A program made the position numbers and the translations under genes. The notes below the pieces were generated by a model. The model had not been told where the DNA came from and did no database searches. It was given only the letters and a program-made list of their open reading frames with translations. Shown piece by piece: positions 1-4,207 of a stretch of DNA of 64,000 bases. The stretch's first letter is position 1. Each line of letters begins with the position of its first letter. The stretch lies in NCBI RefSeq assembly GCF_988242995.1, contig NZ_OZ547043.1; one strand, given 5' to 3'.

Positions 1-2361
<2,361 letters not shown>

Positions 2362-2388
2362 GTAACTACCGTCGCACGAACCAGGAAA

Positions 2389-2413
2389 GCCCGATAAGCG
2401 TTGCGCATCGGGC
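2389..2413. other. GC-rich stem-loop (GCCCGAT..ATCGGGC) between convergent ascB and higA-like gene; possible terminator or REP-like hairpin
   Basis: 7-bp perfect inverted repeat with 11-nt loop read directly; no clear U-tract. Confidence 0.3.
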
Positions 2414-2439
2414 AATCTTGGGTTTGGCATCAGTCAAAA

Positions 2440-2859
2440 TCAAAGAAACCATTCCGGCTTAACGCCAAATCGGGCTGAAAGTGCCTTAATGTGGGATATC
2501 GTCAGGGATCGTTGCCCAGACAAAATCTGACTGACCAGAGATTTAGAGCCGATTTCGTTCTTCAAATCCGCATAGGTCAAATTATGTTGATCAATCAGCG
2601 TACGAAGTAACGCCACGCCAACCGGCATTGCTGCAACGGCTTTGTCGAACTCTGCAAACTTTTCGTTATTGTTTTCATATTCTGCAATGCGGCTCGCCAG
2701 AAAGTCGATAAGTGGATTAGTATCATCTTCTTCAATCAAATATTCGACCAGTTCCAGTGCTTCACGATAATCATCTTCTGAGTCACTGCCTCCCAGAAAG
2801 GGGACTGCATTGACCAGTTCTCTTGTTGCTTTAACAGCGCGTGCAGCATTAGCAGTCAT
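2440..2859 (-). CDS. HigA-like antitoxin (Xre-type HTH DNA-binding protein)
   Basis: 139-aa ORF; C-terminal HTH (SLVSQILSGQRSLTISHIKALSARFG); resembles E. coli HigA/YgjM from memory; start overlaps upstream toxin stop by 4 bp. Confidence 0.75.
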   Translation of the reverse strand: MTANAARAVKATRELVNAVPFLGGSDSEDDYREALELVEYLIEEDDTNPLIDFLASRIAEYENNNEKFAEFDKAVAAMPVGVALLRTLIDQHNLTYADLKNEIGSKSLVSQILSGQRSLTISHIKALSARFGVKPEWFL

Positions 2860-3167
2860 TCTTTGTTCTCTCTGTAGTAACGTGTCAGTTTGTCATACTC
2901 GGCGTGATTAGTTATGTGCTTCACAAAGAACCGCTTATTAACAAAGTTTATGTAGGCAATAACCCTAAGATTGTTCCCGCCGACATCCAGAACGTACCAT
3001 TTATTGCGATATTTAAAATTGTCGAGGTTGGGAAACGCCGTTCGCATTTCTTCTGGCGTAGAAAAATCCGTTTCCTTAATAACCCGATACAATGAGTGTA
3101 GAGCCAGAGCGTCGTTAGGATATTTGCGCGCACACTCTTCAAATGGCGCTTTCGAAATGATGTGCAT
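2856..3167 (-). CDS. HigB-like toxin (RelE/ParE superfamily mRNA interferase)
   Basis: 103-aa ORF; translation MHIISKAPFEECARKYP...FPNLDNFKY...VGGNNLRV resembles E. coli HigB/YgjN; toxin-first order with 4-bp overlap to antitoxin is typical of higBA. Confidence 0.75.
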   Translation of the reverse strand: MHIISKAPFEECARKYPNDALALHSLYRVIKETDFSTPEEMRTAFPNLDNFKYRNKWYVLDVGGNNLRVIAYINFVNKRFFVKHITNHAEYDKLTRYYRENKE

Positions 3168-3248
3168 TTTAACTTCCTTATTAGCGCCTGAATGACTAAA
3201 CCTGGACTACCATTCCTTCGGATTTATTTTTCTATAGTAGTTGATCAC

Positions 3249-3277
3249 ACGGGTGTTCACAATATGTAAACACCCGT
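3249..3277. promoter_or_regulatory. Inverted repeat ACGGGTGT-N13-ACACCCGT upstream of higB-like gene; candidate operator or hairpin
   Basis: Perfect 8-bp arms read from sequence, in the 166-bp spacer between hycI stop and higB-like start. Confidence 0.3.
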
Positions 3278-3333
3278 CTACACGTCACAATTGCACGTCC
3301 AAATTCCAAAACGTGAACATGTTTGTCTACGAA

Positions 3334-3804
3334 CTACTCTTCTTCCACCGCTAACTGCGCGAATCCGCCGTTCCCTTCCCAGCCTTCCAGCCGTTGATAA
3401 ACGGTTTCTACCGCATCTTTAATCGGCTGGGTCATCGGGTAGTAAAAGCCGACGATATCCGGCTGGATGCCGAGAAAAATCACTTCGCCAATATCTTCTT
3501 TTAACTGGTCGATAAGGTAGTTCAGCGGCATGTTATGGGTAGTCATCATAAACATCTCGGCGATATCATCCGGGTCGATTATGCGGATCTCGCCGGGGTT
3601 TAGCCCCATATCCGTGGCGTCGACAATCAGCAGTCGCGTAGGGCGCAGTTCACGGATGGCGACGATGTCGTTTTCCGGTGCACTACCGCCGTCAATCACC
3701 ACCCAGTGACCTTTCGGCGCGGCGGCGCACTTTTCCGCCAGTAGCGGGCCTGCGCCATCATCGCCCATCATGCTATTGCCAACACAGAGTAAAACGTCAG
3801 TCAC
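3334..3804 (-). CDS. hycI: Hydrogenase 3 maturation endopeptidase
   Basis: 156-aa ORF; translation [20 protein letters not shown]... matches HycI. Confidence 0.95.
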   Translation of the reverse strand: MTDVLLCVGNSMMGDDGAGPLLAEKCAAAPKGHWVVIDGGSAPENDIVAIRELRPTRLLIVDATDMGLNPGEIRIIDPDDIAEMFMMTTHNMPLNYLIDQLKEDIGEVIFLGIQPDIVGFYYPMTQPIKDAVETVYQRLEGWEGNGGFAQLAVEEE

Positions 3805-4207
3805 GCAATCTCCTCACCATCAAATAGATGGCGTTTTCCTGATGAATATCATGCAGCATACTTAACAGCATTGTACTCCATTCCTTCTGCTGCGAAGTTT
3901 GCGCTGCCCGGGCTTTATCGAATGCGTTGGCCAGCATCGGCACATGGTTAATGTCGATGACGATCTCACCATATTTCGGCACGCCTTCCATTTTGCGGCG
4001 GGCTTCGCTGCCCGCCTCCAGAGTGGCAATCCATGCCAGATATTCATCCCACGGACAGGTGAGCGCCGCTTCCAGGCAATCGATAACCCCAAGGTGGTGA
4101 CCAATCGCCAGGCTGTAATAGACCACCTGCTGCGCCTCGGCGGGCGTGGCATCGTTCTCATCAATAAATTTACGGCTCAGTTGACTGAACACCACCTTTT
4201 CACTCAT
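3797..4207 (-). CDS. hycH: Formate hydrogenlyase maturation protein
   Basis: 136-aa ORF matching HycH; 8-bp overlap with hycI. Confidence 0.93.

Follow-up and report, generated by a model that had tools for sequence, protein, structure and literature searches.

The 17 bp at positions 3255-3271 of the 64-kb stretch of DNA that we analyzed (hereafter the window) are very probably the operator, O1, of the adjacent HigB/HigA-type operon, an autorepression site that sits within a larger inverted repeat at 3249-3277. Sequence comparison establishes that the site carries an operator motif conserved across the family, where it stands with respect to promoter-like hexamers, and that this antitoxin has the recognition helix that goes with this type of half-site. 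An earlier note on this DNA had proposed that the palindromes upstream of the toxin gene could be the autoregulatory operator of the toxin-antitoxin pair, a terminator of the hyc operon, or both. The operator reading is strongly supported for the inner 17 bp, on the evidence of a position weight matrix (PWM), the family motif, and the helix match, and does not extend to the outer arms, ACGGGTGT and ACACCCGT. Antitoxin autorepression through a promoter palindrome is textbook and ordinary for toxin-antitoxin pairs, and this site stands out only by the loss of a second operator, O2, and by the unexplained lengthening of its palindrome into a long hairpin. For a chromosomal pair that had been uncharacterized, the analysis names a specific 17-bp operator open to testing, along with a likely -35 element.

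Results

The operator lies in a spacer (3168..3333, minus strand) that holds the toxin-antitoxin promoter, operator, and leader. With the last base of the hycI stop at 3334 and the first base of the toxin ATG at 3167 on the minus strand, this spacer has the 166-bp size and the position previously given for it. The bordering gene hycI (3334..3804, minus strand, a 156-aa ORF) is the last of the hyc operon (formate hydrogenlyase); a profile search identified it (TIGR00142, 227 bits; PF01750), and it is annotated as hycI in identical E. coli records. On the other side, a minus-strand gene (2856..3167) encodes a 103-aa HigB-family toxin (PF09907, 82 bits) with 170 homologues found, most of equal length. 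It overlaps, toxin first, a further minus-strand ORF (2440..2859) for a 139-aa HigA-type antitoxin with a C-terminal HTH_3 domain (PF01381), a predicted operator-binding repressor. The HigA structures of K-12 and Shigella were the only PDB matches of this antitoxin (5IFG/6IRP, E 2.5e-35), and the pair is a paralogue of K-12 HigB/HigA, with 46% identity of the antitoxin to K-12 HigA and 39% identity of the toxin to K-12 HigB. A Shine-Dalgarno sequence, AAGGAAG (3173..3179, minus strand), can be read 5 nt 5' of the toxin ATG and is shared by the ABWA45 variant described below. Positions 2300-3400 are 100% identical to E. coli strain 19KM1831. An Rfam scan of 2300-3900 at E<=1 gave no match, and a literature search on this ascB-hycI toxin-antitoxin pair found no paper. 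The plus-strand gene ascB converges on the pair and ends at 2361. Between the convergent ascB and antitoxin stops lies a REP-like hairpin, GCCCGATAAGCGTTGCGCATCGGGC (2389-2413), which folds at about -27 kcal/mol (z -2.8 to -3.7), is found at the same place in K-12, and is likely a shared transcript-end structure for ascB and the hyc/higBA strand.

The inverted repeat first reported in the spacer, with 8-bp arms ACGGGTGT (3249-3256) and ACACCCGT (3270-3277) set 13 nt apart, is present and proves to be larger than described. A repeat search returned 13-nt arms at 3249-3261 and 3265-3277, 92% complementary across a 3-nt gap, and the single mismatch, C3258/A3268, becomes a G.U pair in the minus-strand RNA, where the extended repeat (3249..3277) forms a 13-bp stem. 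The 64 kb contain 62 perfect inverted repeats with 8-nt arms and loops of at most 20 nt, a frequency of about 0.16 expected per 166 bp; 13-nt-arm repeats with at most one mismatch occur at only about six places, a rarity that makes the palindrome at 3249-3277 unusual. The core operator O1 (3255..3271, minus strand; GTTTACATATTGTGAAC on the gene strand) forms its inner part and consists of two 7-nt half-sites, GTTTACA and TGTGAAC, which flank a 3-nt centre, TAT, and match at six of seven pairs. We predict that it is a site for an antitoxin dimer.

Several comparisons single out this core. We built a symmetric PWM from the operator sites of the closest other genera, with zero E. coli sequence among the training sites, the lowest of which scored 17.8 bits; across the 64 kb, positions 3255-3271 scored 28.3 bits, against 7.6 for the runner-up and a window mean of -55. 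The consensus GTTYACANNNTGTRAAC has one exact match in the window, which is O1, and an estimate from pattern specificity puts the chance expectation for the exact family motif at about 2.5e-6 per 166 bp. MAFFT aligned the window site with O1 of the relatives, and outside E. coli the 17-bp operator is the sole DNA-level similarity of the spacer. Within E. coli, the ABWA45 variant of the locus (L001) carries an extra 253-aa hypothetical gene (L001 3577-4338) between higB and hycI. Its coding region is about 97% identical to that of the window, whereas the sequences upstream of higB are not alignable; apart from the Shine-Dalgarno region, the two spacers have nothing in common but a 19-bp island, GTGTTTACATATTGTGAAC (minus strand), which is the inner part of the palindrome at 3249-3277. 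ABWA45 has thus kept the same 19-bp core despite a non-alignable spacer. These observations bear on the suggestion that the two palindromes arose by chance in an AT-rich spacer, or are sites for an unrelated regulator such as CRP or FNR, and have no role in regulating the toxin-antitoxin pair. Short palindromes are indeed common in the 64-kb window and TGTGA-like pentamers can be picked out by eye in the region, but an exact family motif of such low expectation at the homologous promoter position leaves this suggestion hardly any credibility, and a by-eye check found no full CRP (TGTGA-N6-TCACA) or FNR (TTGAT-N4-ATCAA) site.

The family to which O1 belongs was defined by aligning 20 toxin homologues and retrieving 80 homologous loci from a collection with one genome per species. 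A layout recurs upstream of the toxin in these HigB PF09907/HTH-antitoxin operons: O1, a 17-bp GTT-N11-AAC site of 7-3-7 structure, contains a -35-like hexamer; 17 bp further on comes the -10 (TATAGT or TATCAT), followed at once by a second palindrome, O2, and, 15-20 nt later, by the start codon. At least one GTT-N11-AAC site lies within 120 bp of the start at 79 of the 80 loci, and control segments of the same loci contained a site in 5 cases only. Two sites, spaced 38 bp or 28-29 bp apart, occur at 58 of the 80 loci and a single site at about 21, so that O2 is common, not universal. Among the closest genera (Leclercia, Yokenella, Kluyvera, Pluralibacter, Mangrovibacter, Citrobacter, Pantoea, Photorhabdus, and Xenorhabdus) the site is GTTYACATATTGTRAAC, an exact match to the window core.

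The proteins point the same way. We extracted the downstream antitoxin at every locus (L005-L084) and compared it with the upstream 120 bp, and across the 80 loci the recognition helix and the half-site covary, forming at least six classes of helix and half-site. The helix GSKSLVSQILSG goes with the half-site GTTYACA; G(S/A)KS(L/T)VSMIL with GTTCACA / TGTGAAC (ATTCACA in some); GDKTMVSKVLNG and GSKSLVSKILNG with GTTGAC; GSKGNVSKILNG with GTTTCCA; GSKSNVSNILNG with GTTTTCA; and the K-12 helix, GSKSMVSRVLSG, with GTTGCCA. The window antitoxin has a helix (EIGSKSLVSQILSGQRSLT, of class GSKSLVSQILSG) that does not differ from those found with GTTYACA...TGTRAAC operators. We regard this correspondence as a candidate specificity code for K-12-type HigA antitoxins, one that could predict cross-talk or insulation among paralogous HigBA systems, whether chromosomal, plasmid-borne, or carried by prophages.

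The core also occupies a promoter-like position. A -35-like hexamer, TTGTGA (3257..3262, minus strand), lies inside the right half-site of O1, at the position taken by TTGTAA or TTGTGA in the relatives, 17 bp before their -10. In the window, a candidate -10, TACTAT (3234..3239, minus strand), follows TTGTGA after 17 bp and brings the promoter to 8/12 matches overall. TATAGA (3231-3236) overlaps it and is the positional homologue of the relatives' TATAGT; here it stands 20 bp from the -35, and on account of this spacing we rejected TTGTGA-20-TATAGA as the main promoter. We favor TTGTGA-17-TACTAT as the probable promoter. In ABWA45, TTGTGA-17-TATAGT makes a 9/12 promoter. A consensus promoter scan at 9/12 found no site on the minus strand of the window's spacer, so the window promoter would be weak or shifted. 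A family motif with a matching helix and a -35-like TTGTGA placed 17 bp from TACTAT together lead us to read the core as the antitoxin operator O1.

What the window lacks is a second operator. The position of O2 in the relatives, directly after the -10, corresponds approximately to 3213..3230 (minus strand), which has decayed beyond recognition: the alignments did not reveal O2 there, and the PWM found no other site in the window. In ABWA45 (L001 ~3420-3480, minus strand), the sequence after TATAGT aligns with the O2, leader, and start codon of L005/L012/L016 (1920-2006), with the right half of O2 (TGTAAAC) deleted, and the old start context, GCAGATG, survives about 40 nt upstream of the present ATG. 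The surviving start context indicates that both E. coli forms gained a new leader and Shine-Dalgarno sequence, and the absence of O2 in the window together with its half-deletion in ABWA45 indicates that both have a single operator and a longer leader. The alignments accordingly describe an O2 that has decayed in E. coli, leaving the window with O1 alone and a leader that has gained about 40 nt. Without O2, control of the operon may be leaky, or the promoter itself may have decayed in part.

The spacer also varies within E. coli. Five haplotypes with about 15 variable columns, too few for a test of constraint on core versus flank, include one core change against about 1.5 expected. That change, TGTGAAC to TATGAAC in EFF60 (L087), falls within both operator and -35, and EFF60 and 7/2 (L088) have TATAGG in place of TATAGA at the -10-like position, which suggests drift of promoter and operator among some E. 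coli carriers. The substitution in the core counts against the operator reading, as do the weak promoter match, the missing O2, and the outer arms considered below. In strain N96, the outer arm ACCCGT is changed to ACTCGT.

The second feature to which attention had been drawn, the perfect 8-bp palindrome AACATGTT, is present at 3316-3323. The window contains 179 perfect 8-bp palindromes, or 0.46 expected per 166 bp, and AACATGTT alone is therefore not above chance. It overlaps the GTTCAC half-site of a degenerate operator-like sequence, GTTCACGTTTTGGAATT (3302..3318, minus strand), whose left half is good, whose right half is poor, and which is probably non-functional. Could AACATGTT and its surroundings (3302-3323) nevertheless be a second, upstream operator that cooperates with O1? 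Two operators are the rule in most relatives, the left half-site GTTCAC is intact, and GTTCACGTTTTGGAATT ranks sixth among the 64,000 positions scored by the PWM. Its score of -0.5 bits, however, falls far below the 17.8 bits of the lowest training site, and strain N96 carries AACATATT in place of AACATGTT. The location is also at odds with the family layout: 3302-3323 precedes both the promoter and, by 47 bp, O1, whereas the second site of the relatives lies 28-38 bp downstream, after the -10. An upstream operator here is accordingly very unlikely, and the claim of operator function for AACATGTT falls; we judge it to be a chance palindrome, at most a decayed half-site. Between O1 and AACATGTT we also observed an imperfect tandem direct repeat of 13 nt (3281-3306; CACGTCACAATTG / CACGTCCAAATTC, 77% identity), with no counterpart found in the relatives and hence possibly due to chance.

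Outside the core, the palindrome at 3249-3277 continues into outer 6-bp arms (ACGGGT/ACCCGT) that are specific to the E. coli lineage of the window and missing in ABWA45 and most relatives; 70 of 102 relatives' sites wholly lack an extension. These arms are a lineage-specific extension of unproven significance, and operator function does not explain them. The hairpin might act in RNA. Read-through from hycI into higB is possible, and on such a transcript the hairpin could serve, as its sole or an added role, as a terminator, as a pause or roadblock, or as a stabilizer of the hyc mRNA 3' end. The minus-strand RNA over 3249-3277 folds into a perfect 13-bp stem of -21.3 kcal/mol (z -6.4) that none of 200 shuffles equaled. 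It lies 56 nt after the hycI stop, with no other terminator-like site between hycI and higB, and its outer 6 bp, which the operator does not require, pair perfectly, a match that would arise by chance about once in 4096. Like an intrinsic terminator, it joins a G+C-containing 13-bp stem to a 3-nt loop soon after the last gene of an operon. Unlike one, it lacks the defining U/T tract, which is absent after the stem on both strands (minus tail GUGAUCAACUACUAUAG, plus tail CUACACGUCAC), and a terminator scan of 3100-3400 flagged no terminator-like site in the spacer. In ABWA45 the corresponding hairpin is weak (-6.8 kcal/mol, z -0.5). A canonical intrinsic terminator of the hyc operon is not supported, given the missing U-run, the empty scan, and the weak ABWA45 hairpin. 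Quasi-palindrome template-switch mutation, moreover, could create an outer-arm extension neutrally. We therefore consider an RNA-level role in the window, of whichever kind, improbable, if somewhat less so than the upstream operator discussed above.

A further argument for such a role comes from another clade. In Burkholderiales loci L038-L048 (~1941-1971), a single operator lies within a palindrome with 14-bp arms whose 7-bp outer parts differ between species and stay complementary (GGCAGAA/TTCTGCC, GGCGGAA/TTCCGCC, GGAAGAA/TTCTTCC, GGCCGGA/TCCGGCC). The sample is small: among 9 sequences, four pairs are changed on both sides, a number reached in 23 of 500 shuffles, and these amount to 7 cells, a value reached in 1 of 500. 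The element follows a co-directional 418-aa gene and precedes a T-rich tail, TATCCTTTTA, and in L038 it was flagged both as promoter-like (TTGACA-17-TATCCT) and as terminator-like. From the arm changes and the double flag, the coincidence of operator and terminator looks real in this clade, as judged from its sequences. The suggestion that a palindrome could be "both" thus appears borne out in Burkholderiales L038 by the two flags and is not demonstrable in the window. One could imagine a general route in which a single operator that follows a co-directional gene is lengthened into a dual-function hairpin, an operator/promoter in DNA and a terminator/insulator in read-through RNA; the window and the Burkholderiales would both fit, and we offer this as a speculation with low odds, slightly lower than those of an RNA-level role in the window itself. 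Were it true, a 13-bp hairpin without a U-tract would attenuate or shape hyc read-through into higBA, and higBA expression would be linked to anaerobic formate hydrogenlyase transcription.

The pair has a patchy distribution. In the arrangement of the window, the whole pair occurs in 343-380 of 5426 complete E. coli genomes, and the spacer occurs as a single copy per genome in 343 of the 5426. About 7% of complete E. coli genomes, EPEC E2348/69 among them, therefore carry a previously uncharacterized toxin-antitoxin pair. RS571 has lost the toxin and retains remnants of the 253-aa gene (L003 1586-1771), while in K-12 and MC4100 both the pair and the 253-aa gene are gone, with short remnants of the two ends of that gene (L002 1160-1215 in the K-12 type) and REP-like sequence left behind. 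Because K-12 keeps only these end pieces, its "empty" ascB-hycI spacer looks like a deletion product, not the ancestral state. Plasmids commonly carry the family as well (746 records, mostly Klebsiella), and so do the immunity regions of Salmonella prophages. Similarity in searches of phage and plasmid DNA was confined to the coding region and stopped before the spacer, so these matches carry no information on the origin of the spacer. As a separate observation, close homologues in Salmonella enterica (L089, 1400-2230; L091, 2030-3230) lie in prophage-like immunity regions, adjoin CI-like, Cro/YdaS-like, and YdaT genes, and have the promoter layout O1/-10/O2.

Discussion

Our findings suggest a simple scheme for the control of this operon. 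The 139-aa antitoxin, with or without bound toxin, would attach to O1 as a dimer through its C-terminal helix-turn-helix and recognize two 7-bp half-sites, GTTTACA and GTTCACA, with 3 bp between them. Bound to 3255-3271, the dimer would cover the -35-like TTGTGA (3262..3257), and as this hexamer is contained in the right half-site, the bound protein should keep RNA polymerase out and so hold the operon repressed by negative autoregulation. Antitoxin binding, repression and its strength, and the start site are predictions that we infer from the features of the locus, and so is the choice of -10, for which TACTAT (17 bp) and TATAGA (20 bp) are the candidates.

The closest comparison is with orthologous, uncharacterized operons of Leclercia, Yokenella, Kluyvera, Mangrovibacter, Pantoea, Photorhabdus, and Xenorhabdus, whose toxins are 63-80% identical to that of the window. 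In the enterobacterial genera their recognition helices are identical to the window's, and those of Photorhabdus and Xenorhabdus are nearly so. In most of these operons O1 and O2 are spaced by 38 bp and the ATG follows O2 after about 15-20 nt, while in Pantoea and Mixta the site adjacent to the start codon is the only one; the window, in contrast, has O1 alone, at -104, with extended outer arms.

Among systems that have been studied, HigB-HigA of Proteus vulgaris Rts1 has a toxin that presumably belongs to another Pfam family (PF05015), and we take its operator sequence to be unrelated to that of the window. The logic of regulation is nonetheless the same, in that HigA dimers bind two inverted repeats over the -35 and -10 elements (PMC12266136), the O1 and O2 operators of Schureck 2019 as that study is cited in PMC7160566. 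The P. vulgaris antitoxin differs from the window's in its opposite domain order, with the DNA-binding domain N-terminal (PMC7160566). Salmonella Typhimurium SehA-SehB is a HigBA-like pair of the window's own subfamily, in which an antitoxin dimer is reported to repress through two palindromes over -35 and -10 (PMC7160566). Part of the primary evidence on SehA-SehB is in a paper, PMC3868539, that reports like binding of -35/-10 palindromes and autorepression; it has been retracted, and we give it little weight. We had considered P0030 and P0048 as the studied sehAB promoter and rejected them, as they are prophage-borne Salmonella paralogues with the O1/-10/O2 layout.

Within the same subfamily, dimers of HigA and SehB are reported to bind palindromes over the -35 and -10 boxes and to auto-repress (PMC7160566), and operator studies of K-12 HigA are represented by Yang 2016 and Xu 2019, in the form in which PMC7160566 cites them. 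K-12 HigB-HigA (YgjN-YgjM) is the studied system that most invites comparison with the window. Both have a PF09907 toxin and toxin-first gene order, both antitoxins combine an N-terminal dimerization domain with a C-terminal HTH, and both have a 17-bp GTT-N11-AAC palindrome, which in K-12 (GTTGCCAATCTGGCAAC) overlaps the -35 and in the window a -35-like hexamer. K-12 higBA adds a second, weaker site, ATTGCCAATTTGTCAAC (5/7 pairs), directly after its -10, TATCAT, where the window has none. The two also differ in half-site (GTTYACA in the window, GTTGCCA in K-12) and, together with it, in recognition helix (SLVSQILSG in the window, SMVSRVLSG in K-12), and the window operon is set apart by a leader of about 60 nt and by its own chromosomal locus, between ascB and hycI.
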